From a virus (taxonomy: Duplodnaviria; Heunggongvirae; Uroviricota; Caudoviricetes): a DNA stretch of 44,262 nt. Of the stretch, positions 389 to 40,552 are shown in pieces (the stretch's first letter is position 1; each line of letters opens with the position of its first letter). The DNA lies in IMG/VR virus record IMGVR_UViG_3300020429_000539, positions 1 to 44,262 of that record; one strand, 5' to 3'. The translations under genes and the position numbers were made by a program. The notes beneath the pieces were generated by a model, which saw only the letters and a program-made list of their open reading frames with translations, searched no databases and was not told the origin of the DNA.

Positions 389-462
389 TAGCGGGAGGCA
401 GATTCGAACTGCCGACCTCTTGGTTATGAGCCAAGCGAGCTACCAGACTGCTCCATCCCGCA
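389..462 (-). tRNA. tRNA-Met(CAT), initiator-like
   Basis: Cloverleaf TGCGGGA...CTTGG-CTCATAA-CCAAG...GTTCGAAT...TCCCGCTA; 1:72 mismatch; no encoded CCA. Confidence 0.9.
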
Positions 463-477
463 AACTAGGTTTTGAAA

Positions 478-551
478 TAGCGGAGGAGAGATTCGAACTC
501 TCATCGGATGGCTTATGAAACCAACGCTGGTCCTGTCCAGTCTACTCCGCG
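478..551 (-). tRNA. tRNA-Met(CAT), divergent
   Basis: CGCGGAG/CTCCGCT acceptor, loop TTCATAA, T-loop GTTCGAAT. Confidence 0.8.
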
Positions 552-621
552 ATCGATTGTACCCTCTGCCTTGACTGTCGGGCTCATGGGGTAAGCCAAG
601 ACAGAGGGAACTATTGGTAAG

Positions 622-749
622 GGATGCCGGTGGGACTCGAACCCACATCACTCGCTCCACATGCGATAACCGTCTGATCAATCGGCTCATATGAGCAAGT
701 TAGCGAACGACGACTGTATAAGCGCTTTACCAATTAAGCTACAGCATCC
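622..749 (-). tRNA. tRNA-His(GTG)-like gene with a 55-nt insertion (666-720) in the anticodon stem
   Basis: G-1:C73 pair, GATGCTG/CGGCATC acceptor, D arm GCTT-AATTGGTA-AAGC; removing 666-720 gives CTCGC-ATGTGGA-GCGAG and a normal T arm. Confidence 0.75.
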
Positions 750-753
750 ATTT

Positions 754-825
754 TAGCAAGTAAGTTGCGAAACAAGGGGTTCTAAACATGATAAGTGTTG
801 TTAACCTTGAATCTTCGACTTGCTA
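754..825 (-). ncRNA. Y-RNA-like small structured RNA, copy A
   Basis: Terminal stem TAGCAAGT/ACTTGCTA with GTCGAAG...CTTAC bulged helix; inner CAAGG/CCTTG stem. Confidence 0.55.
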
Positions 826-832
826 TGTATTG

Positions 833-911
833 TATCGGACGAGTAAGTGGGTGGGCATCGGGGTTTCACAGTTTCAAGATGTTAACCGATGACCTTCGAC
901 TCTATCCGATA
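833..911 (-). ncRNA. Y-RNA-like small structured RNA, copy B
   Basis: TATCGGA..GAGTCGAAG...CTTACTC.TCCGATA; inner CATCGG/CCGATG stem; shares GGTTAACA and AACCCC with copy A. Confidence 0.55.
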
Positions 912-913
912 AA

Positions 914-988
914 TCAGAGTGGAGGGATTCGAACCCCCGACCTCCTCCGTCCAAGGGAGGCGCGCTGACCAAACTGCGCCACACTCTG
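914..988 (-). tRNA. tRNA-Pro(TGG)
   Basis: CAGAGTG/CACTCTG acceptor; CCTCC-CTTGGAC-GGAGG anticodon arm. Confidence 0.92.
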
Positions 989-1029
989 CAAAACGATGCT
1001 CTTTACTTGTCAAAGATGCAACAAATAAG

Positions 1030-1104
1030 TCGGAGTAGTCAGATTCGAACTGACGACCTTTTGTCCCCCAGACAAACGCGCTAACCAAGCTGCGCCATAC
1101 TCCG
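1030..1104 (-). tRNA. tRNA-Pro(GGG)
   Basis: CGGAGTA/TACTCCG; TTTGT-CTGGGGG-ACAAA. Confidence 0.93.
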
Positions 1105-1106
1105 AT

Positions 1107-1299
1107 TTGAACAGGTAAGGGATGCCAAGGAAGAATCCAGCAGATATTTAGGTGGTCCCCAGCAAGCTGGGAAGCGGCTTAGATTAACCCCTGGCTCTGC
1201 TGACTATAAGGTACTATGTCCCTTATAGTTTACCAAGGAATCTTCGCCGTAACTTAGGACCGTCCGTGTATGATAATCCTTTAGCTTCGACCTGTTCAA
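1107..1299 (-). ncRNA. Long Y-RNA-like structured RNA, copy C
   Basis: TTGAACAGGTCGAAG...CTTACCTGTTCAA closing stem with the same bulged motif; internal hairpins ACTATAAGG/CCTTATAGT and CCCAGC/GCTGGG. Confidence 0.5.
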
Positions 1300-1484
1300 T
1301 ATTCAGTTTTCAAATCCATGTTGAGCTTTTTCAGACTCAACAGGATGCAACCTTCGGTCCAGCCTATACTGGCGTAGCCGGACCTCCACTTGCGCCAACA
1401 TTTCGTAACAGATGATCCAGTAAGGGCCAGAGTCTTCTGGGTCTGTTCTACTGTTGGCTTGGAACGCCTTTCGTTGTTCCTAAG

Positions 1485-1559
1485 TCAAGGTGAGAGGATT
1501 CGAACCTCCGGCCTTCTGGTCCCAAACCAGACGCTCTAACCAAGCTGAGCTACACCCTG
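1485..1559 (-). tRNA. tRNA-Pro(TGG), second copy
   Basis: TCTGG-TTTGGGA-CCAGA anticodon arm, canonical D and T arms. Confidence 0.93.
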
Positions 1560-1563
1560 ATTT

Positions 1564-1770
1564 TTAATACTGCCTTTCTTTATAGCAGTTTATCGGTGCC
1601 TGAATATCTTCAGACTTCAGATTCCTGAGTTGTTCTTTTACATCCTTCGGCAAGGCGAGATAAGTTTCGCCTGGTCGAATGTCTTCTGGTCTCTTGCAAC
1701 TGATGAAACGTAGCATACGAATACGCTCCATCACTTCATACATTGTTTTCTTCGGCGTTGTATCGATCAT
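1564..1770 (-). CDS. Small hypothetical protein between tRNAs
   Basis: 68-aa ORF (MIDTTPKK...) filling the spacer; the longer listed ORF overlaps a tRNA. Confidence 0.5.
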   Translation of the reverse strand: MIDTTPKKTMYEVMERIRMLRFISCKRPEDIRPGETYLALPKDVKEQLRNLKSEDIQAPINCYKERQY

Positions 1771-1778
1771 CTTTCCAA

Positions 1779-1852
1779 TCAGAGAGACACGAGTTGAACG
1801 TGCGACCTTCTGGCCCCGAACCAGACGCTCTACCAAGCTGAGCTACTCTCTG
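1779..1852 (-). tRNA. tRNA-Pro(CGG)
   Basis: TCTGG-TTCGGGG-CCAGA; CAGAGAG/CTCTCTG acceptor. Confidence 0.92.
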
Positions 1853-1853: not shown

Positions 1854-1879
1854 ATTCTAGCAACTACAGGTTTCACCTG
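1854..1879 (-). promoter_or_regulatory. Repeated phage promoter-like motif CAGGTGAAA-N11-TAGAAT
   Basis: One of about 11 copies with fixed spacing. Confidence 0.6.
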
Positions 1880-2019
1880 CAAGTATCTGGATTATTTCGT
1901 GGCTGGGTAGGCCGCTGTGTTCATTGTCGGCATAAACACAATACCTTCGTAGACTTTCACACGCAAAGCGTGAGATTCTCCGAAGGACCAGATTTTGATT
2001 GTTGCGGGTGCGGACGGAC

Positions 2020-2127
2020 TCAGAGAGTCGCGGGTCCATCCTTCGGAACAGAGCGCGACACGATCCCTGAGCCCCTTGTAGGGACTGTGCCATTTGGCAT
2101 CGGGATGTTGGGGTTGCGTGTCTGCAT
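2020..2127 (-). CDS. Putative Pro-rich leader peptide (35 aa, MQTRNPNIPMPNGTVPTRGSGIVSRSVPKDGPATL)
   Basis: GGAG SD; lies between a sigma70 promoter and the tRNA-Pro cluster; 6 Pro codons covering CCC, CCG, CCA, CCT. Confidence 0.6.
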   Translation of the reverse strand: MQTRNPNIPMPNGTVPTRGSGIVSRSVPKDGPATL

Positions 2128-2163: not shown

Positions 2164-2191
2164 AGTATAACCCTCATACGAAGGCTGTCAA
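2164..2191 (-). promoter_or_regulatory. sigma70-type promoter TTGACA-N16-TATACT
   Basis: Near-consensus hexamers just downstream of a terminator. Confidence 0.75.
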
Positions 2192-2214: not shown

Positions 2215-2261
2215 CAAAAAGAGCAAAAAGATAGGCGGCTCCAAACAGAAGCCGCCCATCT
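2215..2261 (-). terminator. Intrinsic terminator after the NAD gene operon
   Basis: AGATGGGCGGCTTC-TGTTT-GGAGCCGCCTATCT then T-runs. Confidence 0.8.
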
Positions 2262-2281: not shown

Positions 2282-2920
2282 TTAGGTATTTACGTCTCGC
2301 GGCAGGTCTTTCATATCCGTGATTCCATGCTGTTCACGAATTTGGGTTGAACTGAGACCCAGCAAAGCTTCGTCAGGTGTTTCGCCTCGCAAGCAGTTCA
2401 TCGGCAAGCGACCATTGAACTCGCGATGATTGTGGAGTCCAAGGCGTTCTCCGTTCATTTCTCGGTCATACACGATGAACTTACCATTGATGCCTTGGAT
2501 GCCTGCAACACCATGATGCTGCAACAGCTTGACAGCGTTGTCAATGCCAATGTGAAACGTAATTGACCAGTGACAAAGAACGCCTGATTTTTGCATGAAG
2601 TAAGGCCATCGGTTTACGAGGATACTCCCCATACCGTTTGTTTGCTCAAGCCGAGGCCGCAATGACTCAAGACTCAGGAACTCTTTGTCGATGCGCTCGA
2701 TAGCGATTTCAAAGTGCTTTTCTCGGGCATCAATTTTGTTATACAAGGCACGATGCGCAGCATGCATCGGATTGAAACTGCCAGGTACGAGATGAATGAA
2801 ACCAGTCTTGAATGGAGACTGGTCTTTATAGACAGGCAGAATCTCTCCATCTCGCCACACGAAGGCGAACAGAGAATCTGCGATGACACGAGAATACGCT
2901 TCTTCGAGGGAAAGGCTCAT
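2282..2920 (-). CDS. NadD-like (HIGH-class) nucleotidyltransferase, putative NMN/NaMN adenylyltransferase
   Basis: PGSFNPMHAAH and SSTQIR motifs; ATGA overlap with the upstream gene. Confidence 0.7.
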   Translation of the reverse strand: MSLSLEEAYSRVIADSLFAFVWRDGEILPVYKDQSPFKTGFIHLVPGSFNPMHAAHRALYNKIDAREKHFEIAIERIDKEFLSLESLRPRLEQTNGMGSILVNRWPYFMQKSGVLCHWSITFHIGIDNAVKLLQHHGVAGIQGINGKFIVYDREMNGERLGLHNHREFNGRLPMNCLRGETPDEALLGLSSTQIREQHGITDMKDLPRDVNT

Positions 2921-3612
2921 ACTGACGCCTCCATTGTTCGTCGCTCGACCCATGTTGGGCCTTCAATCCATGGGTTGTCAGCGACATCGTATGTGCCATC
3001 GTCGTTCAGTGTGTAGTCCGTGATGGTCTCGCCTTCTCCGAGCCATGCAAACTTGATGTCGTCCATCAGGACGGCGAGAGCGGCCATCGTAATCTTGGCA
3101 TCTTCCATCTCTCTGACGGCCTCCACACGACCTTGAGCAGCAAGCTCAGCGTAACCTTGTTCGTCGGCCTTGCTGAGACTAAGTTGGACACGGCGCTCTT
3201 GATTGGTCTTGGGATTGAACATCCAAATCCAAGCTTCGTTGACTCCGCGACGATAGCGGGTCGTCGTAATGCTTGCATTGATGACCAGGAGCCTCGCGTC
3301 AGGACTCGCCAGCGCGTTCGCATTGATCAGTGCGTTGAGGTATAGCTCGGTTGCCACAGGGCCAACAAAAGCGACATGACCCGTGGTCAATGGATTTTCC
3401 ATTCCTTTTGGAAGCGCCTGTTGCGTAAACTGAATCGATTTGGCTTGGTTGTAGGGGATGAAGATGTCATTGAGAACGCTACTCGCGCCAGGCAGTTTGC
3501 CGATGTCACCGAATGCGAAACCACCACCCGTAATCATCGCAGAGATGCGCTGACCTTCCGATGTCTCGGCCCATTGTTCTTTGAATCGACGGATAGCAGA
3601 ATGATGATTCAT
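2917..3612 (-). CDS. CinA C-terminal/PncC-like protein
   Basis: ITGGG...LPGASSV...PY motif resembling the CinA-C TGG/PGAS signature; adjacent to NadD-like gene. Confidence 0.55.
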   Translation of the reverse strand: MNHHSAIRRFKEQWAETSEGQRISAMITGGGFAFGDIGKLPGASSVLNDIFIPYNQAKSIQFTQQALPKGMENPLTTGHVAFVGPVATELYLNALINANALASPDARLLVINASITTTRYRRGVNEAWIWMFNPKTNQERRVQLSLSKADEQGYAELAAQGRVEAVREMEDAKITMAALAVLMDDIKFAWLGEGETITDYTLNDDGTYDVADNPWIEGPTWVERRTMEASV

Positions 3613-3620
3613 GTTGGTTC

Positions 3621-4334
3621 CTATACGACCATGGGTTCAATGTGGGACCGCGATATCTGTTTCGCATGCTGAAGCTCAGCGCCTCCCCACATAAAGACCA
3701 AGAAGGCAATCAGAATGATCATGGGGTCAAACTCAACGATGCCCCATACAGCAAAGCCAGCGCAAGCTACTACGCTGACATATCTTGCGATGTATGTTGC
3801 TCTGAGATGACTGGTAAAGAACTTGCATGTTGAGCGAAGAAGCCTTCCTCCGTCCATTGGAAAAGCAGGCACCAAGTTGAACACGAGCAGGATAAGATTA
3901 ATCTTCCACATCGCGAGAAGAATAGTAGAAGGCAGGGGATTGAGGGGTACATAGGTATAGAGATGCCATGCGGCAACAAACAAGAAGGCGCTAACCATCA
4001 GGCCGCCCATCGTGATGAAGAACTCTTCCTTGGCTGTCCACAGGCTTTTGCGCTTGTTTTCGCCGATATTTGCCAGCCCACCGAAGATATAGATGGTTAT
4101 GTCAGGTGTTGAAAAGTTGTAGTATTTTGCCATGAGAATGTGACCAAACTCATGCAGCAGCACAGATACAAGCAGGACTAGCAAGACAATATAGGTCGCA
4201 ATCAGATAAGCGAAACCCTTGCCAGAGAAAATCGTTACCAAGCAGATAACCGCGAACAGCAGCAAGAACGTCCAGTTGATATGAACGGTCGTCCCAAACC
4301 ACTTGCCAAGATAGAGGGCGCGATTGCGAATCAT
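3621..4334 (-). CDS. Site-2 protease, M50 family membrane metalloprotease
   Basis: HEFGH and NLVPAFPMDGG motifs, multiple TM segments. Confidence 0.9.
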   Translation of the reverse strand: MIRNRALYLGKWFGTTVHINWTFLLLFAVICLVTIFSGKGFAYLIATYIVLLVLLVSVLLHEFGHILMAKYYNFSTPDITIYIFGGLANIGENKRKSLWTAKEEFFITMGGLMVSAFLFVAAWHLYTYVPLNPLPSTILLAMWKINLILLVFNLVPAFPMDGGRLLRSTCKFFTSHLRATYIARYVSVVACAGFAVWGIVEFDPMIILIAFLVFMWGGAELQHAKQISRSHIEPMVV

Positions 4335-5911
4335 GCTGCGCCTGCGGTCTGCATTTTCAAAAGCTCAGGAAGTTCAGCGCGTTCCCGAACCTGCTGAAAT
4401 GTCCATTCTTGGACAACTTCGCCATCGCGGAAGACTTCGACCAACAGGTCTCCACCAAAGTCATTGGGATTCTCTTCGAGCGTGTTGATGGTTCGAAGCG
4501 TGCCGTTGTCGTTGACAAGAGCGAGGAGGCCACGCTTGCTCTTCTTGCTCGAACCAGTCTTCGGGTCTTTGTAGACCTCATAGCCCTGTCCATTGATTTC
4601 GCTGTAGCAGGCCTTGAACGCACAGGCGTAGGTGTCACGATTCATCTTCTGCAACAGTGCGCCGCCACTGCCGAAGGCAAGGTTCTCAGCCGACCAACCT
4701 GCGTCCATGACGGCTTGCAAGATATCGCGGAGGCTTCGCCAGTTGATACCGTCGCCTTGGATGACACGAATGGAATCGTGCAGAACCTTGAAACCCTTGG
4801 CGTTCTCAGTGTACCCGAACTTTTCGCCAAGGACTTCAAGAACCTTTGGAACGATTTCGGTAGGCTCGCCAGAGTCAGGTCGAACCACAAGAACACCCTC
4901 GCGTTCCATGATTTGCTCACGAAGCTCGCCACCCCACACGTTTTCGCAGAGTCCGAACAGGTCGTAAGAGTCAGAAACACAGGCAACGAAGCCGGTCGGG
5001 AACTGGTCGAGCAAACGCTTGCAGACTTCTCGTTCGCCCTCCGGTCCCTTGATGGTCATGATGGAATGCTCGGTGGCGGGGATACTGAAACCACTCATCG
5101 TTTCGCTGTAGAACTTATCCCAGGCAGCAAACGAGTCATCAGCGTCCCAGTCGGAATGGGGTCCGATGCCATTGCGGTCGTATTCGAGCAGATGTTCAAA
5201 CGTATCACCCTGGTAGAACTGTGTTGTCAGTTCGATGGCAGCCATGGTGTCGGTGCCTGCGAAGTTGACAAGATGCGCTGCGCCGCCAATAGCCGCGCTT
5301 TCGACGCTCGACACGCCTCGGTACCCGAAGTCATGCAGACGACTCGGCATGAGAATAGGAATCATCTCATCCGTCGCGGTCTTTTGCATGAACTCGAAAA
5401 TGGTCTGCTTGCAAGAGCGAGACAGAGAGGCGACAGTCATCGGATACCAGACTTGGACGAGGACTGTTTCGAGAAAGTTCGTGAGCCATGCGCATTCGGA
5501 GTCGGTGTTTTCGATCATCATCAGCACGTTGGACGAGGGAACAACGGTTCCTTCGGGTACGGCGCGAATCGTAACCGGCAGTTTCCCACCGTGCTTCTTG
5601 ATGATATGACGCCAGCCCTCAGCATTGAAAATGCTTTCGTTGCCCATGAAGTGATGCTTGCAGAAAGCTCGGATGCGAGGCAGGTCTTGGTAGCTAACCA
5701 CGCCGCCTCGGAAGAATCGCTTCAAGAAGTATTGCAATCCAAAGAACACGGTTTCATCCGCGAACTCGGCACCTGCTCGGGCCTCGAAGTATGAGACCAG
5801 TCGCTCAACGCCATCGACGTAGATGCGATGATGGGAAATCTTGTAGCTGTCCGTAAAGTTGGGCAGCGAAAGATGAAGGCCATTCATGAGCATAACTGGT
5901 TCTCCTGTCAA
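4331..5911 (-). CDS. nadV: Nicotinamide phosphoribosyltransferase (NAMPT)
   Basis: TDSYKISH, LHDFGYRG, SIPATEHS, VSDSYD, VRPDSG, IQGDG, FGSGG motifs. Confidence 0.93.
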   Translation of the reverse strand: MTGEPVMLMNGLHLSLPNFTDSYKISHHRIYVDGVERLVSYFEARAGAEFADETVFFGLQYFLKRFFRGGVVSYQDLPRIRAFCKHHFMGNESIFNAEGWRHIIKKHGGKLPVTIRAVPEGTVVPSSNVLMMIENTDSECAWLTNFLETVLVQVWYPMTVASLSRSCKQTIFEFMQKTATDEMIPILMPSRLHDFGYRGVSSVESAAIGGAAHLVNFAGTDTMAAIELTTQFYQGDTFEHLLEYDRNGIGPHSDWDADDSFAAWDKFYSETMSGFSIPATEHSIMTIKGPEGEREVCKRLLDQFPTGFVACVSDSYDLFGLCENVWGGELREQIMEREGVLVVRPDSGEPTEIVPKVLEVLGEKFGYTENAKGFKVLHDSIRVIQGDGINWRSLRDILQAVMDAGWSAENLAFGSGGALLQKMNRDTYACAFKACYSEINGQGYEVYKDPKTGSSKKSKRGLLALVNDNGTLRTINTLEENPNDFGGDLLVEVFRDGEVVQEWTFQQVRERAELPELLKMQTAGAA

Positions 5912-6316: not shown

Positions 6317-6342
6317 ATTATCTATGTGGCTTGTTTCACCTG
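6317..6342 (-). promoter_or_regulatory. CAGGTGAAA-N11-GATAAT promoter-like motif
   Basis: Repeated motif upstream of the lipoprotein-NAMPT operon. Confidence 0.55.
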
Positions 6343-6918
6343 CAAATTGGGCAGAATGCACGAATGATCAATTCCCTGCCGTTTTTCTGCGTCCACTTGA
6401 TGCAGAAACCATGACAAGGGGTCTCGCTTTTTTCCTTCAACGCATGAATCAATGATGTTGAAAAGAATGAAAGTTCGCAGGTCTTCGATTGCATCAAGCA
6501 TTTCTGTCATGCGCTCATTGATGTCGTGACCCTTCCTGTGCTTGCGATACAGCGAGTATGGCTCATCATGTCGTTGCACCATCTCAAGCAGGTCGTGGTC
6601 ATCGATAAAGTGCGACAGAAAGTCTTTTGCAAGAGATGCATGACTGTATGGATGCATGATGGGAACACCTGGTCTGGCATGCACTTTGAGCGTATCGTGC
6701 GCATGAATCAGAAGCCTCAGTTTGGCTTCTTCTTTTTCCGAGATGTTCACTCTTTTCTTGAGACGTTCAAGGTTGCGTTCGAGTTCTTCGATATGCAACC
6801 CGATTTTGCCCTCAGGGTGCCCTCCGCGTGGTTTACCCCATTCCACACCTGCCTTATAGGTTGTGTGGTCTTGCATGGCTTTGAGCGCCTCCACTAGGGC
6901 GACAACTTCTTTGCTCAT
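6322..6918 (-). CDS. HD-domain phosphohydrolase
   Basis: GHPEG...H, HAHDTLK, H...HDE...D pattern. Confidence 0.7.
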   Translation of the reverse strand: MSKEVVALVEALKAMQDHTTYKAGVEWGKPRGGHPEGKIGLHIEELERNLERLKKRVNISEKEEAKLRLLIHAHDTLKVHARPGVPIMHPYSHASLAKDFLSHFIDDHDLLEMVQRHDEPYSLYRKHRKGHDINERMTEMLDAIEDLRTFILFNIIDSCVEGKKRDPLSWFLHQVDAEKRQGIDHSCILPNLQVKQAT

Positions 6919-10544: not shown

Positions 10545-11333
10545 TTATACGAGAATCAAGTCATTGATGTTGTTGAGTCCCTCAGTAAGAACAACTGGTC
10601 CATCATCGCTGATATAAACGTCATGTTCATAGTGGACAGCGATGGAACCATCAGCCGTATAAATAGGCCAGGTGTTCTTTTCATGACGAAGCTTTCCGGT
10701 TCCAGCGCACACCATTGGTTCAACTGCAAGGAACATGCCTTCTTTGAACTTCATATCGTCGGTTGAAGTACCTGTAACTGTGTTGGGCAAGAATGGTTCC
10801 ATATGCAGCTTTCTGCCGTACCCATGACCGCCCAAGCCTTCGGCGCAATGAAAGCCTGCATCTTCGACAGTTCGCTGAATAGTTTTAGACCAGTTTCTAA
10901 ACGGAGAAGTTGGCGTCATCATGTAGATACCGCTTAGAATGGCATCTTTAGCGCAAGAGGTAAGCTTTGAGACTGTTTCAGAGGGCTCGCCAAAGACGTA
11001 TGTCCATGCAGCGTCACCAATGAAGCCTCGATACGACACACCAATGTCGATGCTCAGAACATCGCCTGCTTTAACTGGTTCAGTGTAGGAGGCTGCCGTG
11101 CCATGCACGATGCAATCATTGATACTCAAGCAAGAGTATGATGGAAAAAGAGGTTTTATACCTGATGTTCTATAGCCTCGGAAGCATGACTTGCTATCAA
11201 GGTCTGCGAGTTGATGCCGAACGAAAGCATCTATCTGCGGAAGCTTAACGCCGATTCGCAGCCATTGGGAAAGTCGTTCATGAATTTCAACAACCCTGTT
11301 TGCTGATTCGGTTGCGCGTTCAAGGTCAGTCAT
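10545..11333 (-). CDS. map: Methionine aminopeptidase type I
   Basis: CLSINDCIVHG, IDIG, GDAA, GHGYG...H.EP, VEPM, HYEH metal ligands. Confidence 0.92.
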   Translation of the reverse strand: MTDLERATESANRVVEIHERLSQWLRIGVKLPQIDAFVRHQLADLDSKSCFRGYRTSGIKPLFPSYSCLSINDCIVHGTAASYTEPVKAGDVLSIDIGVSYRGFIGDAAWTYVFGEPSETVSKLTSCAKDAILSGIYMMTPTSPFRNWSKTIQRTVEDAGFHCAEGLGGHGYGRKLHMEPFLPNTVTGTSTDDMKFKEGMFLAVEPMVCAGTGKLRHEKNTWPIYTADGSIAVHYEHDVYISDDGPVVLTEGLNNINDLILV

Positions 11334-11962
11334 TCGCCATACTTCTCCCAGCCCACGCCGAAGACTTCCTTGAGCTTCGCGATGTAGGCGTCTGTCTTGA
11401 TTTTCGCCATCCAAAGAGAATGACCCGACCCGCCCTTACAGACAACGCCTTCTTCAATGCCATCGCCTGTATTGTAGTCGCCTCGTTTCACGGCTGCGAT
11501 GAAGTCTTCGTTGAGATTGCCCTCGTAGACAACCTCAGCGGCATTGCATTCGCCAACGAAGCGATTGACAAAATCACGAGGCGAAACAAGTCCCTGCTGA
11601 TGAATATTGACATCAAACAGAACAAGTTCCATTGGATTGTCAGGTTCAAGATCATGAAGACCAGCGAAACTCTTAGGGCCGACAAACTCTGCGTAGGCTG
11701 TTACCCGCCGCGTTCTTCGCCAGTGCTTGTTTGATTTGATGATGTTCAGAACATCATCTGCAAGAGTTGAACGAAAAAGAGCAATGGCAGGTCCAAAGAC
11801 CTCATCGCTCTCATCGAACAACCTTTTGCGTGTCCCGAACTTGTGCCAGCCCTGTTTGGGCGACCATTCGAAACGGATATTCGACCCATCGTATTTCTTG
11901 AACGCAATGCAAGGCTTACGGGGTGCTTGAGAAGAACCTGGAATGGAGGGGTAGAGTTTCAT
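11330..11962 (-). CDS. ATP-dependent RNA ligase-like nucleotidyltransferase
   Basis: Motif I KYDGSN, III AEF, IIIa LFD, IV EGVV, V AKIK; no OB domain. Confidence 0.7.
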   Translation of the reverse strand: MKLYPSIPGSSQAPRKPCIAFKKYDGSNIRFEWSPKQGWHKFGTRKRLFDESDEVFGPAIALFRSTLADDVLNIIKSNKHWRRTRRVTAYAEFVGPKSFAGLHDLEPDNPMELVLFDVNIHQQGLVSPRDFVNRFVGECNAAEVVYEGNLNEDFIAAVKRGDYNTGDGIEEGVVCKGGSGHSLWMAKIKTDAYIAKLKEVFGVGWEKYGE

Positions 11963-13184: not shown

Positions 13185-13259
13185 TGACCCCAGCGGGATT
13201 CGAACCCGCGTTACCAGGATGAAAACCTGGTGTCCTGGACCAGACTAGACGATGGGGCC
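13185..13259 (-). tRNA. tRNA-Glu(TTC)
   Basis: CCAGG-TTTTCAT-CCTGG; typical Glu D arm GTCTAG...AGGAC. Confidence 0.93.
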
Positions 13260-13484: not shown

Positions 13485-13487
13485 GAA

Positions 13488-13561: not shown

Positions 13562-13562
13562 G

Positions 13563-27501: not shown

Positions 27502-27517
27502 CTTTGTTCCTTCCAAT

Positions 27518-27554
27518 GAAAAACAGCCTCAGCTTCGAGAGCTTTGAGACTGTT
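27518..27554 (-). terminator. Possible intrinsic terminator
   Basis: AACAGTCTCA...TGAGGCTGTT-TTT. Confidence 0.45.
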
Positions 27555-27608
27555 ATATGAGAAGAAGGTTGTTGCTAAAGATGATTGAGGACAGTATAGC
27601 TTATTTTG

Positions 27609-28850: not shown

Positions 28851-28880
28851 CTAGGCCAATCCTTATCTGATATGCGACTG

Positions 28881-28906
28881 ATTCTAGCCGAAAAAGGTTT
28901 CACCTG
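28881..28906 (-). promoter_or_regulatory. CAGGTGAAA-N11-TAGAAT motif
   Basis: Repeated motif right after the gyrA stop. Confidence 0.65.
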
Positions 28907-31384
28907 TTATTCATCTTCGGCATCGGCGGCGATCTTGGCGAGCTTGATGACTTCATCTCCATCGTTCAGAGTAACCACCTTGACGCCACCTGTCGTCCGT
29001 CCAGTGTTCCGAATCTCACTTGCTCCAAATCGAATAACCTGTCCAAACTTGGTCATTGCAAGCAATGATTCTCCGTTGTAAAGCGCAGCGCCTCCCACCA
29101 GTTTGCCTCCGCGCTTGGCGAGAGCGTTCTTCTTGAGAACTGCATAGCCCTTGACGGCTCGACTTCCAAGACGGCGGTATTCAGTCGCAGGAGACTTCTT
29201 TCCGTATCCCGCAGAAGTAATGACAAAGATGTCAGGTTTGTCTTTGGGCTTGAGCGTAAAGATTTGAGCAACACGGTCGCCCTCGTTGAGCTTCATTGCT
29301 CGTGAGCCTCGCGTGACTCGTCCCTGAACAGGCACCACTTCTTCTGAGTAGCGAATAGCGTTGCCTTGCTCCGTGATGATGAAGACATCTTCAGATCCAG
29401 TTGTCGGCAGCACGAAGGCTACGCTGTCATCGTCTTCCAGTTTGATTGCGTTGATACCAGCAACCTTGCGAGCCGTATCGTAATCTTCGACCTTGCTTCG
29501 CTTGATGTACCCTTTCTTCGTAATCATGACAAGGTGCCCGTTCTTTGGCACGCTTGCCATCGAGACCATATTCGTGACATCCTCCTCTTGCTTGAGGCTC
29601 AGAAGGTTCGAGACATGGGCTCCGCGAGCCGTTTTGGAGACTTGAGGAATCTCGTAGGCCTTGCGGCGGTAGACAGCGCCATGTGTCGTGAAGAACAGCA
29701 AGACATCTTTTGTAGAGGCTTCGAAGACTTCGACAGGAGCATCTTCGTTGTCTTTCTTTGCCACTCCCCGCGAGCCTTTGCCTCCGCGAGATTGAACACG
29801 ATATTCGCTGAGAGGAATACGCTTGACGTATCCTTCGCCCGAGAGCAGGACGACAACCTTTTCTTCGGCAATCAGGTCTTCATCATTAATATCGGTCGGG
29901 TCGGCTTCAATCTGAGAGCGCCGGTCATCTCCGAACTTTTCGATCAGTTCATCGAGTTCTTCAACGATGATGTCACGAGTTTTCTTTTTGTTGCCGATGA
30001 TTGTGTCGAGCCACTTCTTACGTTCCACTAGTTTCTCAAGTTCCTCCTTGAGCTTACCGGCTTCGAGCTTGGTCAGCGAACGAAGAGTCATAGACAGAAC
30101 GGCTTCTGCCTGATTTTCTGTCTTGATGATGCTCGCTGCAATCAGCTTTTCTTTAGCATCCACTGGGTCTTCGGCGTTTCGGATAATTTTGATCGCATCA
30201 TCGAGCCGTTTCGTAACAGCAATCAAGCCCTCAACAATTTCGGTACGAGCGATATTTTTACGACGCTCTGCCTCGTATTTGCGGGTAAGAACAAGTTCGC
30301 GATGCTCCACGAATGCCTTGAAGAGTTGAATGATCGAGGCGCATTCAACAACCTTACCATCAATCAATACCGTACTATTGATGCTGAACGAGTCTCTCAG
30401 GCACGTTCTCTTGATAAGCGTATTGAGGACAATCTCTGCAACAGCAGCTTGTTTGACTTCGATCCAAATACGAAGACCGTCCTTCTTAGAAGACAAGTCT
30501 TTCATATCGCTGATACCGTCAATCTCGCCCTTTTTGATCAGGTCAACAACTTGGTCAATGAATTTTGTCGGACTCGCCATATAAGGGAGTTCGGTAATGA
30601 TGATTTCTGACTTCTTCTTGCGACCTTGAGCGTTCTTGATTTCCCAGACGCCTTCAAGCTTAACAGAGCCCCTGCCCTCTCTGTAATAATCAAGGACACC
30701 GCTGCGCCCCAGGACTTTGCATCCATTGGGGAAATCGGGACCAGGCATGATGTCGAGAACTTCTTCAGGAGTCAGGTTCTCATTTGCGATGTAGGCCTTG
30801 ATTGCGTTGCATGTTTCGGACAAGTTGTGAGGCGGCATGTTCGTCGCCCAGCCAACCGCAATTCCCGCACAGCCATTGAGAAGAAGGTTTGGAGCCTTGG
30901 CAGGAAGAATTGTAGGCTCTTCCATTTCTTCGTTGTAGTTTGGCTCGTAGTCAACAACATCTTTATTGAGGTCTTGCAGGAGCAAGGCTCCCGACTTGGC
31001 GAGTTTGGCCTCCGTGTATCGCATGGCGGCGGGCGGGTCGCCGTCTCGGTTGCCGAAGTTTCCCTGCGGAGCGATAAGAGGATATCGCATGACCCAAGAC
31101 TGAGCCAAGCGAACAAGGGTTGGATAAATAACAGCTTCGCCGTGCGGATGGTAGTTACCTGAAGTATCGCCACAAATCTTGGCGCACTTCTTTGTGTTGC
31201 CACCAGGCGAGAGCTTGAGGTCATCCATCGCGACGAGGATACGGCGCTGCGAGGGCTTGAGCCCGTCGCGAGCATCGGGCAGCGCACGGTCTTCGAGCGA
31301 CATGAAGGCATATTGCGTGAACTGCTGGTCGAGCTTGTCGGCAAGTTCGCCAACAATGATTTTGTCGTTTGCTGTCTTTGTCAT
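28907..31384 (-). CDS. gyrA: DNA gyrase subunit A
   Basis: [24 protein letters not shown] catalytic Tyr, GyrA-box QSRGGKG, beta-pinwheel repeats. Confidence 0.96.
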
Positions 31385-33375: not shown

Positions 33376-33942
33376 TTAGTTGCGGTCAAGCCAATCAGAC
33401 AGGTCAGACATCATCGCATCAATCTGCGCGAGAGGAATGATGAGAGGCCTGACATCTTCGGGAGACTTGGCAGGAATGCGTGCCTGTCGATACGCTTCCT
33501 CAATGGCGTGGCTGCGAACAACCACGGTTTTGTCATGGTTCCGACCCGTAGACTTCTGTCGCGTGTAAGTGCCCCACGATGCTTTGACTTCTTCAGGCTC
33601 ATAGCCCATGGGGATTTCGTAGGCATATGCCGTACCTTTGTCGGTCTTAAGCCATGTCGAATGCATGGTTCGTTCGTTGCTGTAAGACCTAATTCCCTGC
33701 GAAGGAACAAGCTCGTTGAAGACGGGCAAGACCTGCGGCTCGTTGCCCTTGCGGTTACGGTCCATCTTGCGAGCCCAGCGGAACCATGCCTTTGCTCGGC
33801 TCTGAGAGGCGTGATACGCCTTGTAGAGCATTTTGAGCTTGAGGAAGGTTTCGTAGTTACAGGGATGGTAGCCCCAGTTCGAACGGTAGGTCTCAAGGCC
33901 CTGGTCGTTGATTTCAATAACGTTCTGATCTTTGGTTGCCAT
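33376..33942 (-). CDS. Hypothetical protein
   Basis: AAGGAG SD overlapping the stop of the upstream Pth2-like gene. Confidence 0.75.
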   Translation of the reverse strand: MATKDQNVIEINDQGLETYRSNWGYHPCNYETFLKLKMLYKAYHASQSRAKAWFRWARKMDRNRKGNEPQVLPVFNELVPSQGIRSYSNERTMHSTWLKTDKGTAYAYEIPMGYEPEEVKASWGTYTRQKSTGRNHDKTVVVRSHAIEEAYRQARIPAKSPEDVRPLIIPLAQIDAMMSDLSDWLDRN

Positions 33943-33955: not shown

Positions 33956-34330
33956 TTATGCATTAGGCGCACTGACAGCAGCCGCTCCCATGAGCGGATA
34001 GCCAATAAACAAACGTCGTTGCTCGCCACACACGGGCTTACAAGCGATCGCAGTCAACTCATTGTTGAGGTCTGGTTCTCTGAACGCACGAAAAGAAATA
34101 CCGGCGCGTTCGAGCTTCTCGGCAGTTCGTTGCAAACTGCGCTCGCCGCCAACGTTCAGAATAATCAGGTGGGGATGCTCATTTGCCTACGGGTCGTAGA
34201 AGGCAGAGCTAGCCTCAATCAAAGCGTGTCCTGACTGGACCGCTTGTTGCGCGGCCGTCAGGTCTCGCCGCACGAAGACATAAAGGTAAGGGGTGGTCTC
34301 ATCAAACTGCTGGTTCTACGTGAATCCCAT
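33956..34330 (-). CDS. Pth2-like peptidyl-tRNA hydrolase with two in-frame TAG codons (readthrough candidate)
   Basis: TAAGGAG SD; MGFT*NQQFDETTPYLYVFVRRDLTAAQQAVQSGHALIEASSAFYDP*ANEHPHLIILNV...FREPDLNNELTAIACKP; TAGs at 34316-34318 and 34187-34189; ends TAA. Confidence 0.7.
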
Positions 34331-34360: not shown

Positions 34361-34390
34361 ATTCAAGCAGCCCCACAAGCCGCCTGTCAA
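34361..34390 (-). promoter_or_regulatory. sigma70-like promoter TTGACA-N18-(TGn)TTGAAT
   Basis: Perfect -35 and an extended -10-like element upstream of the Pth2-like gene. Confidence 0.5.
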
Positions 34391-34949: not shown

Positions 34950-35167
34950 CCGTCCATCCTTCGTGTTTCTGACCGAGGCACTGCATGGCATTCAGGACAG
35001 CATGGTACGATAAATCCATACCACCGAACCATGTTGGAATTTAGGTCGTGCATAAACTGATGTCCACAGAAGCACACGACTTCGCCAGACATCTTGGGTC
35101 CATTTTCTGAAATGACCTTTTCAGGTTCCTTGATGCTGATGTCTTGAGGAGCTTCAGGTGGAATCAT
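34946..35167 (-). CDS. Small Zn-finger protein
   Basis: CFCGH...CPECH. Confidence 0.5.
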   Translation of the reverse strand: MIPPEAPQDISIKEPEKVISENGPKMSGEVVCFCGHQFMHDLNSNMVRWYGFIVPCCPECHAVPRSETRRMDG

Positions 35168-35834
35168 TCTTTTTGCCCTCATAATCAACAGGAACACGAA
35201 TCGGGTTCATGATTTCGTCTATGTCCACGCCCAGCGACTTGGCTTGCCGATGAACGACCAATTGTAACGGAAAGTTCATCGAGCCTGTGAGTGCAAAAAA
35301 GCGGTAGGTCAGCGCGTTGACGAGCAGCACGCCGTCTCTCGCGTAGCCGAGCTTCGCGTCAGAATGCCACTTGGCATTCTCAAGCGACCGCATGTTGTGG
35401 AGGCGGTCAGCGGCCTTGACCCACACGGCTTGCTCATCCATGACAGCAGCTTTGTAGTGTTGAAGCGCAGCCTTGACGGTAGCCTTCTTGAGCGGCTGAC
35501 AGTCTTTGGGGATGTTGTCATTTGACAGTTGGTGAATCCACCTGCGAACATGAACACCGAACCACTTCTCGATATGCTCCGAGAAAATACCATCGCAGTC
35601 TTCAACAACATCATGAAGCCAAGCTGTGACCAGAATGTTTTCATCGCGGATACCGAACTCGTTGCGAAGGATATCCACAACAGCAGCAGGATGCGTGATG
35701 TAGGGCTCGCCTCCGCTGCGTGTCTGACCCTCGTGCGCAAGCGTAGCGACAAGCTCAGCCCTTTCGAGCATCGTCTGAGGGTCCGCGTCTCGCAGAGCTT
35801 CCTCAATCTGCTTGTCGAGATATACGGTCGTCAT
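35154..35834 (-). CDS. SpoT/Mesh1-like HD hydrolase (small alarmone hydrolase family)
   Basis: AHEGQTRSGGEPYITHP, WLHDVVED, KAADRLHN. Confidence 0.85.
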   Translation of the reverse strand: MTTVYLDKQIEEALRDADPQTMLERAELVATLAHEGQTRSGGEPYITHPAAVVDILRNEFGIRDENILVTAWLHDVVEDCDGIFSEHIEKWFGVHVRRWIHQLSNDNIPKDCQPLKKATVKAALQHYKAAVMDEQAVWVKAADRLHNMRSLENAKWHSDAKLGYARDGVLLVNALTYRFFALTGSMNFPLQLVVHRQAKSLGVDIDEIMNPIRVPVDYEGKKNDST

Positions 35835-37595: not shown

Positions 37596-37606
37596 GCGAT
37601 GTTTCC

Positions 37607-38164
37607 TTACCCGTCGCTAGGGAAGAGATCGAGGTCGGCCTCGTTTTCTTCTCCGGTTTCGAACGTGCGCTGAGTTCTGCCGCTTGTAACGACGGTGATG
37701 TCGATTTCGGTGCGACCAAAGATGCCCGCATAGACGCTGTTGGGGAACGTCTGAATGTGGTCGCGGTGCGCGGTCCACTTCTGAATCAGGGACTTCTGCT
37801 CTCGCTCGAAATCACGACGGTTCGACTCGATGCTTGCTTGCAGGTTCGTGAACGACGACTGGTCGAATGTGGGGTTGACGCTCTGCACGAAGGCGAGTAG
37901 GCGACTATTGCCGCCAGCCGAATCGCTCATGATGTCCGTGTAGATTTCCTTGAAGGCATCCTTGTGACGCTCGGCCACCTGTGCCTGTTGCGAGAGAACC
38001 TTCCACACACGGTCGAACGTAGCCTCATTCGCCTTCTGTTGCGCCTCAACGCCGTTGCGCAGGCGAACCTCGCTGTTGTGGAAGCCAATGGCAGGTCCAA
38101 CAATCAGCAAACCGAGAACGACGACAACGATGCCGACGACGATAAGAACAGTCTTGCCTTTCAT
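37607..38164 (-). CDS. LemA-like membrane-anchored helical protein
   Basis: N-terminal TM, helical body, IQTFPNSVYA motif; AAGGAG SD. Confidence 0.6.
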   Translation of the reverse strand: MKGKTVLIVVGIVVVVLGLLIVGPAIGFHNSEVRLRNGVEAQQKANEATFDRVWKVLSQQAQVAERHKDAFKEIYTDIMSDSAGGNSRLLAFVQSVNPTFDQSSFTNLQASIESNRRDFEREQKSLIQKWTAHRDHIQTFPNSVYAGIFGRTEIDITVVTSGRTQRTFETGEENEADLDLFPSDG

Positions 38165-38166
38165 GG

Positions 38167-38868
38167 CTACTCCTTGTTTCTGAACCTGAGTCCCGAGATG
38201 GCCCACCGACCACTCGTAAACTGCGGGTCTTCAATGTATTCTTTGTGAGCAATCGTGATGATGTCACAGTTTTGTGGGTTGGCGAGGCTCTCAAACTGCT
38301 CGACGCTGAGATGCATGAACCTCATGACAAAGCAACGAATCGTCAGCCCATGAGACACGATCAAAACATTGCGGTCGCGGTCAGTCCCATCAAGGGACAG
38401 CCGCATACTCGCGGGAACAGGTGGAAATTTGCGGTAGACTTGCCGCATCATGCTTTCGAGGAAGTGGCAGCAGCGGTCAAAGCAATCGGCAGGCGATTCT
38501 CCGCCTTTGAAGCGGTAATAGAACCAGCCATGCTCGGCACGCATTGCGTCCTGCGCCTCAACATCGCTGTAGCCGTGGTCAACCTCACGGAGACGAGGGT
38601 CTTCGTAACTCGTGATGGTTGAGGCATCTTCAACACCAGCGCCTTGAAGAATCGACGCAAGGGTATCTCTTGCTCGGCGATAAGGTGACGAGTAGATGAG
38701 AGCATTGTGCAGGTCGAAGTTTGGGTCGTCATCGAGAGCGCGACCAGCTTCTTGCGCCTGAGCCACGCCATCGCCGGTCAGTTGAATCTTGTGGTCTCCA
38801 ACGGAGCCATGCACAACAACACCAGCGTTAGCTTCTGATTGTCCATGCCGAACAAGTTTGATGATCAT
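38167..38868 (-). CDS. Histidine phosphatase (phosphoglycerate mutase family)
   Basis: RHGQS, SSPYRRARDT, LRE, GES, VSHG. Confidence 0.92.
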   Translation of the reverse strand: MIIKLVRHGQSEANAGVVVHGSVGDHKIQLTGDGVAQAQEAGRALDDDPNFDLHNALIYSSPYRRARDTLASILQGAGVEDASTITSYEDPRLREVDHGYSDVEAQDAMRAEHGWFYYRFKGGESPADCFDRCCHFLESMMRQVYRKFPPVPASMRLSLDGTDRDRNVLIVSHGLTIRCFVMRFMHLSVEQFESLANPQNCDIITIAHKEYIEDPQFTSGRWAISGLRFRNKE

Positions 38869-39242
38869 TTGTTTGATTCCTCTTCTTTAACGACCACCAT
38901 ATGCATTCGGTTGCAATCGTCGATACTCGCCCAGAAGCGAGGTTGTACCTCGAATTTTGGACATTTTGTGACAATAAAGCTGATGTTCCAAGAGTCTTCT
39001 GAGATGCGCTTTATTGCCAGGACTGTTCCTTTGGGAAGTCGAACCCGTTCGGGTGGTGGAAATGAAAAGCGATGTGGCTCGCTTGTCCTCTTATACTCCA
39101 TGTCCCGCCATCTAAGATAGCTAATGTATTCAAGGCCAAGTGCATGAAATAGCCACTTGTTATGCTCTCTATGTTGCAGGTCAAAAAACCACGGCTTCGT
39201 GAGTCGGAGCTTTGTGTTTGGTGGCGGGATAAAAAGCCTCAC
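38865..39242 (-). CDS. Hypothetical protein
   Basis: Overlap-coupled ORF. Confidence 0.6.
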   Translation of the reverse strand: MRLFIPPPNTKLRLTKPWFFDLQHREHNKWLFHALGLEYISYLRWRDMEYKRTSEPHRFSFPPPERVRLPKGTVLAIKRISEDSWNISFIVTKCPKFEVQPRFWASIDDCNRMHMVVVKEEESNK

Positions 39243-39910
39243 CGTTTGCCTCCGCCATCTGAAACCATGTCGAGACTTTCGAAGTCTTGCATACGCAGAC
39301 TTGCTCGGTCTCCGCGAAGCAGGTCATCCATGCTCTCGGTGACGATTGCGCCGCTTTGAAGCAACTGCATCTGACGATCCCAAAGAATCGTAGATGCGGC
39401 AGTTGCCAGGTTCAGGCAATGCCGCACGGGTATGTAGACAAACTGATGGCAGTGGCGCGCCAGCCGGTTGATGCTGCCATCTTCGGGTCCAAAGACATAG
39501 ATGGCTTTTTCAGGATGCTCAAACTCATGCAAAGGCATAGCGCCTTCACGGAGTTCGATACCGATGACGGGAGTGCCTGATGCAAAGCAGTCAAAGGGCC
39601 GCTGATGGTGGCAGATTTGTACCTTCTGATAGCCTTTCATACGCTCTTCGCGAGGAAGGCGAGCTTTGCCCTTACCCTTCTTGCCACCTTTGTTTCCACC
39701 GCGACCATCAATGTTTTTGGTCGGGTCTTCGAGGTCAACACGGTTGCCTGTAAAGAAGACCTGTTTGAAATCATAGCCCGAAGCTAGACGAACGATCTGC
39801 GAGACATTGCGAGCATACTTCGGGTCTTCAAGGATGATTGAAGGCACGAGACCAGTTGTCGGCGCATTCTTGCCGATCATCTTGGTTTCAATGTGTCCGT
39901 TGGTTTTCAT
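39239..39910 (-). CDS. SpoU/TrmH-family (SPOUT) RNA 2'-O-methyltransferase
   Basis: NVSQIVR, VFGPEDGS, IP...CLNLATAA. Confidence 0.85.
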   Translation of the reverse strand: MKTNGHIETKMIGKNAPTTGLVPSIILEDPKYARNVSQIVRLASGYDFKQVFFTGNRVDLEDPTKNIDGRGGNKGGKKGKGKARLPREERMKGYQKVQICHHQRPFDCFASGTPVIGIELREGAMPLHEFEHPEKAIYVFGPEDGSINRLARHCHQFVYIPVRHCLNLATAASTILWDRQMQLLQSGAIVTESMDDLLRGDRASLRMQDFESLDMVSDGGGKR

Positions 39911-40308
39911 TGTCTGATTGTCCAACGCGGCGACGTTGCCCCTCTGTTGAAGTCTTTAACCAGTTCCCAGAAGCTCTTAAGCTCGCTTTCCATGAAGTAG
40001 GGGATGTCGAGCGTTGTGCAGAGAACGATTTCTCGGTCACGACCAGAAGATGCACCATAGCGGAAAACAGCAAGGTCGCAGGTTGCAAGTTCATGCAAAC
40101 AAAACAGGGTTTGCGATTCATAGTTGCTGACGCATACTGTTCCCCACATGAATGTATCGCACATGGGGCAAACAGTATGGACAAGACCAGAGTTCTGAAG
40201 CTGTGTGCGCAGATGAAGCGTGGCGTTGATGTTCGCCAGAGGGTCAGGCTTACTCCATGGGCCACCCACAAAGACACGAGGAAGTTTAGTGTTGATCTCG
40301 TCGCTCAT
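39907..40308 (-). CDS. Nucleoside 2-deoxyribosyltransferase-like protein
   Basis: VFVGGPW...CDLAVF..GASSG.DRE...IP pattern. Confidence 0.55.
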   Translation of the reverse strand: MSDEINTKLPRVFVGGPWSKPDPLANINATLHLRTQLQNSGLVHTVCPMCDTFMWGTVCVSNYESQTLFCLHELATCDLAVFRYGASSGRDREIVLCTTLDIPYFMESELKSFWELVKDFNRGATSPRWTIRQ

Positions 40309-40477
40309 CTTTGCCTGCCGTTTCTCTCAAAGAGTCCTGAATGCGCTCAAGCATTTCGCGGCGAGCCAAGCCCTTGCGATAGGCGTCTGAGCCGTCGCCA
40401 GGTTCGCCACGGACACCACGACCATACTGGTCTTGCGCTTCACGAATGCGATTGATGTCTACGTCTGAGCGGTTCAT
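40286..40477 (-). CDS. Small hypothetical protein
   Basis: MNRSDVDINRIREAQ..., starts right after the tRNA. Confidence 0.5.
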   Translation of the reverse strand: MNRSDVDINRIREAQDQYGRGVRGEPGDGSDAYRKGLARREMLERIQDSLRETAGKDERRDQH

Positions 40478-40479
40478 AA

Positions 40480-40552
40480 TGCCTCGGAGGAGATTCGAAC
40501 TCCCAACCAGCGGAACTAGAAGCCGCCGCTCTACCATTTGAGCTACCGAGAC
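40480..40552 (-). tRNA. Amber suppressor tRNA (anticodon CTA)
   Basis: GTCTCGG-TA-GCTC-AAATGGTA-GAGC-G-GCGGC-TTCTAGT-TCCGC-TGGTT-GGGAG-TTCGAAT-CTCCT-CCGAGGC-A; C31:U39 mismatch. Confidence 0.8.

Follow-up and report, generated by a model that had tools for sequence, protein, structure and literature searches.

Background

Leader-peptide attenuators, among them trpL, hisL, leuL, thrL, ilvL and pheM, control amino-acid operons and pheST. In Salmonella, mgtL/mgtA constitutes a Rho-dependent leader attenuator containing Pro codons, and T-box riboswitches control termination by sensing the charging state of one tRNA type. The gene of release factor RF2, prfB, is autoregulated by a +1 frameshift at CUU-UGA-C, and the peptidyl-tRNA hydrolase Pth2 employs Lys, Asp and Thr as catalytic residues. 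Loss of host tRNAs during infection is a proposed reason for the presence of tRNA genes in phages. Here we analyse a stretch of 44,262 nucleotides (nt), hereafter the window, which corresponds to bases 1-44262 of the Caudoviricetes record IMGVR_UViG_3300020429_000539, a phage record of 488,051 bases with direct terminal repeats. Two elements are considered in particular: clusters of tRNA genes preceded by short leader open reading frames (ORFs) that spell the amino acids of the cluster, and a gene with the Pth2 fold interrupted by in-frame amber codons.

These elements address why large phages carry tRNAs, and why phages with the standard code keep amber suppressors. The available part of one article reports that no target gene was found for the suppressor tRNAs of phage XacN1 (PMC5852040), and the available part of a 2025 article asks what the purpose of 'non-functioning' suppressors is (PMC12386605). 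In the literature searched, composed mostly of open-access articles without their supplements, reports of leaders on tRNA operons or of a Pth2 gated by amber codons were not found. A preliminary description of the window had proposed three units with sigma70-like promoters, each pairing a decoding event with its remedy (Pro codons with tRNA-Pro, Glu codons with tRNA-Glu, and UAG with a peptidyl-tRNA hydrolase), and had joined them with several enzymes and small RNAs into one inducible system against host translation shut-off.

Five leaders matched to five tRNA clusters

A total of 71 tRNA and transfer-messenger RNA (tmRNA) genes was called by ARAGORN across the genome. The sequencing runs containing this DNA are mostly marine metagenomes. 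The coordinates of the features are collected in Table 1.

Within the window, the four tRNA-Pro genes are preceded by a leader with 6 Pro in 34 codons (P=3.6e-3), in which CCC, CCG, CCA and CCT are all used, in agreement with the pairing first proposed. The Glu leader and five tRNA-Glu calls, of which the copy at 13488 was obtained from ARAGORN alone, are likewise present. Searching the rest of the genome for further isoacceptor clusters extended this arrangement well beyond the window, since a cognate leader was found for each of three more. Five tRNA-Leu genes at genome position 174783 are preceded by a leader with Leu at 6 of its 15 codons (P=5e-4), and three Gln and four Ser tRNAs from genome position 67587 by one in which 13 of 24 codons encode Gln or Ser (P=1.5e-7), including all six Ser codons. 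A leader also stands ahead of a 12-kb mixed tRNA array starting at genome position 87906. Past its Met, the first 35 residues of this leader lack Pro, Glu, Leu and Ser (P=3e-5), precisely the amino acids having clusters of their own, and include all 16 others (3.5% chance given the avoidance). Together, the five leaders (Pro; Glu; Leu; Gln and Ser; mixed) divide all 20 amino acids, and their true pairing with the five clusters is the best of 120. The scores of individual leaders were matched by 4 to 72 of 3000 random 330-nt windows (31 for Pro, 57 for Leu and 72 for Glu). The notion that this phage pairs decoding sensors with remedies is thus borne out on a scale wider than that on which it was conceived.

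No cognate leader was found before the tmRNA or the single tRNAs (Met, both CUA, Arg, Lys, the internal Ser pair and Val/Met), and searches with neighbouring genes recovered no close relative carrying the Pro or Glu unit. One study provides weak evidence from RNA runs: a contig at 1291-2117 starts within 10 nt of the Pro leader start and another at 14234-14452 within 10 nt of the Glu leader start, both spanning tRNA genes.

Shortened LysRS-like and HisRS-like genes (genome ~68950-71140) precede the Gln/Ser unit, and MetRS (genome 88346-89900) precedes the mixed array. An ORF of EPPT tandem repeats (window 1-200 plus the genome end) crosses the contig ends, placing a Pro-rich repeat downstream of the tRNA-Pro operon.

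Promoters and predicted leader switches

The sigma70-like promoters attributed to all three units were recovered for Pro only (11 of 12 consensus positions); the Glu unit has no properly spaced -35 box and the Pth2-like gene has no consensus -10, its TTGACA box being retained in homolog loci L125 and L126 though the sequence further upstream diverges. The promoter scanner covered the window except 16000-30000, a stretch covered by pattern scans. A second class of promoter-like motif, GTGAA-N11-13-TAnAnT, occurs at 33 genome sites, with a peak of 20 at spacer 12, compared with 0-4 for control spacers beyond the 11-13 range. The genome has sigma70-region-2 matches, one clear and three weak, and this motif is possibly read by a phage sigma factor. 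The tmRNA (genome 50171-50520) has a sigma70-type promoter of its own.

Intrinsic terminators lie ahead of the first tRNA in the Gln/Ser unit (-16.9) and the mixed array (-20.4), and the Leu unit has a hairpin as well as a weak terminator. Antiterminators able to pair with the 5' arm of the terminator were predicted by folding in the mixed array (12-bp, -22.5 kcal/mol) and in the Gln/Ser unit (9-nt); their 5' strands begin at codons 36 and 19 respectively, just past the cognate run. In a nascent-RNA model of these two units, the probability of the antiterminator was ~1.0 with a ribosome in the run and 0.0 with the ribosome past it. The Pro and Glu units are built differently, with a hairpin and a C-rich tract (43 C vs 37 G in the Pro spacer, 22 C vs 13 G in the Glu spacer). 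The Glu hairpin is exceptionally stable (z=-6.2; 0 of 200 shuffles equally stable) and is modelled as lost once the ribosome passes codon ~13.

From this layout, the leaders are likely to act as ribosome-operated attenuators of the tRNA operons, allowing transcription to enter the tRNA genes only when the cognate codons are decoded slowly. A ribosome stalled in the Gln/Ser or mixed-array leader would leave the antiterminator free to block the intrinsic terminator. In the Pro and Glu leaders, stalling would preserve a hairpin that hides the C-rich tract, which is probably Rho-loading, and advance of the ribosome would dissolve the hairpin and expose the tract, so that termination in these two units would be Rho-dependent.

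Leaders in other phages

Homologs of Pth2, gyrase and neighbouring genes led to nine other large phage records, whose tRNA regions were compared. Their leaders can spell the cluster that follows: a Gln run precedes four tRNA-Gln, a Lys run five tRNA-Lys, Tyr-Pro-Tyr-His-Pro repeats a His/Tyr/Pro cluster, and a Ser/Leu/Tyr leader a Ser/Leu/Tyr cluster. In phage G006, a Glu/Arg leader stands ahead of a cluster of three Glu and one Arg tRNA; it resembles the Glu leader of the window and likewise has no U-tract. Ten external units were modelled, of which several share the layout and some switch cleanly.

A blind rule was then applied, taking the best ATG or GTG ORF of 9-60 residues before every cluster of at least three tRNAs, with misses retained. 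Over 24 cluster heads, the score was 44.3 against a permutation mean of 19.2, and 0 of 20,000 permutations were as good; for the 16 external heads alone 12 of 20,000 were as good, and 5 heads scored at least 2. An internal point of the mixed array scoring 3.0 corresponds to a long, implausible ORF and was taken as chance.

The leader in locus L246 (1880-2048) is rich in Lys and is followed by a cluster in which a tRNA-CUA stands among Lys tRNAs; this suppressor may carry Lys.

An amber-gated gene with the Pth2 fold

The Pth2-like gene scored just below the cut-off of PF01981 (22.4 vs 23; E=1.5e-4), and its fold was supported by a profile match to 2zv3 (E=6e-9) and by an alignment-based model with a pLDDT (predicted local distance difference test) of 89.6, which replaced a poor single-sequence fold (pLDDT 58). 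The top Foldseek matches in the PDB are Pth2 structures (E=1e-5, probability 1.0, template modelling score 0.66-0.73). Both of its TAG codons are kept in two near relatives despite 13-14 synonymous changes.

The 166 homolog loci, which form 99 clusters at 80% identity, comprise 78 from viral contigs, 80 from metagenomes (the best among 508 matches), six from phage records and two others. In 41 clusters the gene starts with Met and one to three codons followed by TAG, and 32 of these have a tRNA-CUA within 2 kb. An internal TAG only, mostly at the site of the second TAG of the window, is found in 7 clusters, TAA in 3, TGA in 2, and neither stop nor suppressor in 13 long forms. Among the 44 loci with at least two tRNAs, the suppressor is the nearest tRNA in 32, vs 14.7 expected; this is the better control, as the absence of suppressors from all 13 long forms is weak evidence, those loci holding almost no tRNAs. 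A tRNA-UUA lies near 2 of the 3 TAA clusters and none of the 96 others (Fisher P=6e-4). The TGA cases are weak: in L047 the stop is immediately followed by an ATG, and L099 is possibly TGA-recoded. The early TAG is scattered over the tree of the family, with 8 label changes, at least 5 of them forced by well-supported branches; this tree is a quick version with many open forks, comprising 98 of the 99 rows (L119 omitted).

In this genome TAG is a normal stop, ending 26 of the 212 ORFs of at least 250 residues. Genome-wide recoding of TAG (code 15) was rejected on these grounds and because no recoded block stands out; in most 25-kb blocks, the ORF cover gained by TAG read-through does not exceed that gained by TGA read-through. 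The homolog loci are mostly not TAG-recoded either (median gain 0.03), and a gain above 0.12 was observed in only 4 of the 31 long amber-gated loci, no more than for TGA. A genome scan for genes gated by a short stop after a Shine-Dalgarno (SD) site and ATG returned 24 candidates, of which only the Pth2-like gene was convincing by eye.

The gate recurs in cultured phages, where the gene is annotated from a downstream start or missed. In mycobacteriophages Cali (ATG-TAG-GTG) and Myrna (GTG-TAG-GTG), a tRNA-CUA is located 130-310 nt downstream; in both, the downstream GTG could serve as start too. The UAG also occurs in Serratia phage BF, Pectobacterium phage CBB and Acinetobacter phage ME3, the last with a tRNA-CUA nearby, and the homologs of RaK2 and Aeromonas phage 65 have an open frame. 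In XacN1 the homolog is joined to an upstream domain, and the suppressors of this phage are not explained by the gene. A search of 185,579 prokaryote genomes gave only six matching contigs, all from metagenome-assembled genomes and four of them beside a tRNA-CUA; the family therefore looks viral.

It is very likely that this amber gate is conserved and functional. Full-length protein would be made only on read-through of UAG, most probably by the phage tRNA-CUA. Because proximity to the suppressor persists even in forms of the gene that lack a stop, the gene product probably acts on that tRNA, as a feedback brake or recycler: suppression would yield the enzyme, which would in turn deacylate or recycle the suppressor. 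The proposed pairing of UAG with a peptidyl-tRNA hydrolase holds as regards the UAG-broken Pth2-fold gene, and its role is better tied to the amber suppressor than to general ribosome rescue.

A total of 206 Mycobacterium phage records match the family, and in Cluster C mycobacteriophages (L254 2460-2480, L255 1960-1980) the start is directly followed by TAG, with annotation from the next GTG. The gene immediately 3' of the Pth2-like gene (window 33376-33942), of unknown function, is matched by an equally placed homolog in a distant phage (L047/L001, 4330 onward), whose Pth2 has a TGA and which holds a tRNA-UCA.

A frameshift in the release factor gene

A further stop-interrupted gene of the genome encodes a release factor (genome ~65485-66232, minus strand; L043 2233-1486), closer to RF1 and with GGQ kept (PF00472, E=6e-31). 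Its initial frame of 21 codons ends in AGGAG-CGT-CTT-TGA-C, where a +1 shift joins the main frame. The CTT-stop occupies the correct frame in 9 of the 10 homolog loci of full length (7 distinct sequences), the stop being TGA, TAA or TAG. The release factor would be produced only if slow termination led to a +1 frameshift at UGA, which follows the design of prfB; it is the kind of additional sensor-effector pair that the preliminary description had proposed to look for. The scan rule described above (SD, ATG, short stop) missed this frameshift.

At genome 176826-176896, on the plus strand, lies a tRNA-like gene whose anticodon is UCA (opal) and whose body is atypical; the release factor aside, no TGA-gated gene was identified in the genome.

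Accessory enzymes and small RNAs of the window

Most of the enzymes listed in the preliminary description were identified, namely the RNA ligase, methionine aminopeptidase (Map), SPOUT methylase, valyl-tRNA synthetase (ValRS)-like and SpoT-like proteins and two metallophosphoesterases; the ORF with an HD motif at 6322-6918 had no library match. The window also encodes NAMPT, phosphoribosyl pyrophosphate (PRPP) synthetase, NADAR, PARP, gyrase and two AAA ATPases. The set related to NAD (NAMPT, PRPP synthetase, NADAR and a PARP-like protein) occupies window positions 2282-5890, 15627-16655, 22807-23259 and 43356-44261, and two ORFs (2282-3612) downstream of NAMPT may complete an NAD salvage path.

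The small RNAs described as Y-like carry GNCGAAN0-1G, the Ro60-binding motif of bacterial Y RNA according to the available part of PMC4201824, with copies at 900 and 819 on the same strand and within 4 kb of Ro60. The latter is encoded at 484520-485461, ~3.5 kb from these RNAs on the circular map. No Rfam match was obtained, YrlA included (E<=5), and they are hence termed Y-like and not YrlA. Other tRNA-like RNAs, picked up by Rfam or by ARAGORN with introns allowed, have long insertions in or near the anticodon arm (window 622-748; genome 84290-84413, 84653-84774 and 176900-177022).

The enzymes have no leaders, and the available part of PMC7824862 reads jumbo-phage tRNAs, RNA ligases, phosphoesterases, PTH2 and Ro60 as counter-defence RNA-repair cargo. 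A single co-regulated system including the accessory enzymes is consequently not supported.

Table 1. Features discussed in the text (window positions, unless the genome is named)
Feature	Position	Strand	Basis or remark
Three Y-like small RNAs	~1108-1300, 836-912, 753-831	-	GUCGAA(N)G 5' motif, CUUA bulge
Two tRNA-Met(CAU) and tRNA-like RNA with long insertion	388-748	-	tRNA calls
Four tRNA-Pro (CGG, UGG, GGG, UGG)	914-1852	-	tRNA calls
Second-class promoter-like motif GTGAA-N12-TAGAAT, directly 5' of first tRNA-Pro	1854-1876	-	pattern scan
Predicted switch hairpin over 3' half and stop of Pro leader, then C-rich tract	1990-2085	-	folding, z=-2.2
Pro leader ORF, 35 residues	2020-2127	-	6 Pro codons
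Sigma70-type promoter of Pro unit	2164-2191	-	TTGACA-16-TATACT, 11/12
Intrinsic terminator of upstream gene, insulating Pro unit	2229-2261	-	14-bp stem and T run
Methionine aminopeptidase and RNA-ligase-like genes, no leader	10545-11962	-	TIGR00500 above cut-off; PF09414 E=6e-7
tRNA-Glu cluster (CUC x2, UUC x3)	13185-14339	-	tRNA calls
Internal second-class promoter motif in Glu cluster	13585		
Endonuclease ORF inside tRNA-Glu cluster	13750-14259		
Long predicted hairpin, last codons of Glu leader to first tRNA-Glu, enclosing C-rich tract	14340-14420	-	-35 kcal/mol
Glu leader ORF, 16 residues, 3 GAA codons	14404-14454	-	ORF composition
Partial promoter of Glu unit	14499-14527	-	TATACT box, weak -35; absent from promoter-scanner listing
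Shortened ValRS-like synthetase, 454 residues	21203-22567	-	best models ValRS, below cut-offs
Pth2-fold gene, 124 residues on read-through	33956-34330	-	in-frame TAG codons 5 (34316-34318) and 48 (34187-34189)
TTGACA box upstream of Pth2-like gene, no consensus -10	34385-34390	-	conserved in L125, L126
Stand-alone SpoT-type HD hydrolase domain	35154-35834	-	PF13328 E=5e-16; spoT_relA N-terminal part
SPOUT methylase, DUF3228 and calcineurin-like phosphoesterase around tRNA-CUA	39239-41841	-	library matches
tRNA-CUA (amber)	40480-40552	-	tRNA calls
Second tRNA-CUA	genome 46542-46618		tRNA calls
Second-class motif, all window sites	1876, 10540, 13585, 19978, 28903, 33328, 41226		

Discussion

Several observations weigh against attenuation by codon-matched leaders or against the amber gate. 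By itself, the Glu leader is not significantly enriched (3 Glu in 15 codons, P=0.07), which makes this side of its pairing with tRNA-Glu weak. Neither the Glu unit nor, between leader and tRNAs, the Pro unit has a U-tract or intrinsic terminator, that of the Leu unit is feeble, and second-class motifs are located downstream of the Pro leader, which would be bypassed, as well as within the Glu cluster. In the mixed array the terminator wins at full-length equilibrium (P 0.65-0.99), and the switch therefore needs co-transcriptional kinetics; three weak Ser-like genes in or beside this array, called with relaxed ARAGORN settings, are a small blemish. Outside this genome, 11 of the 16 external heads scored under 2, the Ser/Leu/Tyr, His/Pro/Tyr and Lys units did not switch cleanly in the model, and a hold-out of 15 heads in five further phage records was negative overall (12,784 of 20,000 permutations were as good), its one clear leader occurring at the head whose terminator is by far the strongest. 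Judged from these comparisons, the cognate-leader design is real but patchy, and not universal. As for the gate, the Pth2-like gene of the window and its nearest tRNA-CUA are 6 kb apart, 33 of the 99 clusters are stop-free short forms, and the catalytic Lys of Pth2 aligns to Gln or a variable residue and its Asp to an invariant Glu, so that hydrolase activity is not assured.

One alternative is that the leaders are chance or vestigial ORFs, the tRNA clusters being constitutive from the second promoter class and the Pth2-like gene a decaying pseudogene. The negative hold-out, the existence of bypass promoters and the occurrence of ORFs matching the Glu or Leu leader in ~2% of random windows would all suit it; we regard it as highly improbable, given that the leaders match at 5 of 5 operon heads and divide the code among them in complementary fashion, and that leader spelling follows cluster content in unrelated phages. 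A pseudogene was rejected in view of the UAG conserved at codons 3-5 in 41 clusters across the tree, the synonymous changes in near relatives, and a stop type that follows the anticodon in the TAA cases. A bolder explanation, rather unlikely, sees in the gate a back-up for termination when host RF1 is disabled: tRNA-CUA would take the chain at UAG, the Pth2-fold enzyme would release it, and the early UAG would provide autoregulation in the manner of prfB. Its appeal lies in the 22 of 33 short stop-free clusters that still sit beside a suppressor tRNA, in the very diverse acceptor stems of the suppressors, in active-site positions that differ from Pth2, and in a release factor gene that follows the same logic. 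However, biochemical precedent was not found, a charged suppressor would ordinarily lengthen the chain and not drop off, and the phage already encodes a GGQ release factor.

If the leaders do act as attenuators, their purpose is a distinct matter. They probably serve to restore decoding when tRNAs are destroyed during infection, because extra tRNA cures tRNA loss and not amino-acid shortage; whether a host tRNase or shut-off is the main trigger is, in our judgement, evenly balanced. The same switches could instead match tRNA supply to demand, in a starved host or while the phage itself breaks down host RNA, with no link to immunity. This homeostatic purpose is conceivable, though we lean away from it. 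It would account for the even coverage of all 20 amino acids, beyond the few tRNAs cut by known anticodon nucleases, and for the predominance of marine metagenomes among the runs holding this DNA; yet extra tRNA would presumably not relieve an amino-acid shortage, and RNA ligase, Ro60, tmRNA, SpoT-type hydrolase and NAD-salvage genes are typical of counter-defence, as read in the available part of PMC7824862. The inducibility of the system and its anti-defence purpose, as originally suggested, remain hypotheses, and naming host defence as the trigger went too far.

On a broader scale, we tentatively envisage a genome-wide monitor of decoding, in which five attenuators audit the 20 amino acids and the stop gates add the release factor and the Pth2-fold enzyme. 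Just as tentatively, such a monitor might switch on only the failing tRNA set, with the Pth2-fold enzyme and the amber tRNA as a dedicated module. If true, the phage would possess an inducible answer to host tRNases and to the shut-off of termination, and the presence of orphan suppressor tRNAs in phages with the standard code would be accounted for. Codon-matched leaders make the question of phage tRNAs testable with simple reporters, as each would name the tRNAs whose loss the phage expects. A conserved amber-gated Pth2-fold gene, in turn, gives the suppressors a concrete target, including in cultured phages.

Comparison with known systems

Sets for RNA repair and ribosome rescue in jumbo phages are composed of tRNAs, RNA ligase, phosphoesterases, PTH2 and Ro60, which co-occur here too; the available part of that article (PMC7824862) contains no mention of 'suppressor', 'attenuat' or 'leader', nor does it describe the in-frame UAG or its link to tRNA-CUA. 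Stop-recoded phages employ a phage tRNA-CUA to read UAG, as proposed here, according to the available part of bioRxiv 10.1101/2021.08.26.457843. They differ in that the standard code applies in this genome and in most homolog loci, and that UAG interrupts one gene and not a block of genes.

The Pth2-like protein shares the fold of archaeal and eukaryotic Pth2 (PF01981; 2zv3, 3erj, 1xty) and the QxxH motif, and departs from them in the replaced Lys and Asp, an FREPDLNN motif, the in-frame amber codons and the linkage to a suppressor tRNA. The release factor gene has the same heptamer as prfB and an upstream SD-like AGGAG. Unlike prfB, it encodes a protein nearer to RF1 that lacks most of the N-terminal domain; among its relatives the stop varies and most have no SD-like element.

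Among leader-controlled systems, no T-box was matched by Rfam in the window or in L042-L046, and sensing in the phage units would differ from T-boxes in relying on a translated ORF. The Pro and Glu units resemble mgtL/mgtA in their predicted alternative hairpin, C-rich tract and absence of a U-tract terminator, with a Pro-rich leader in common; here tRNA genes would be controlled, and the use of Rho is presumed. The attenuators of amino-acid operons have in common with the phage units a promoter, a short ORF of cognate codons and multivalent leaders serving multivalent operons, and, as regards the Gln/Ser and mixed-array units, a predicted antiterminator just after the run and an intrinsic terminator. 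They control biosynthetic enzymes or a synthetase, whereas the leaders described here precede phage tRNA genes; and the five phage leaders partition the 20 amino acids, one of them reading 16.

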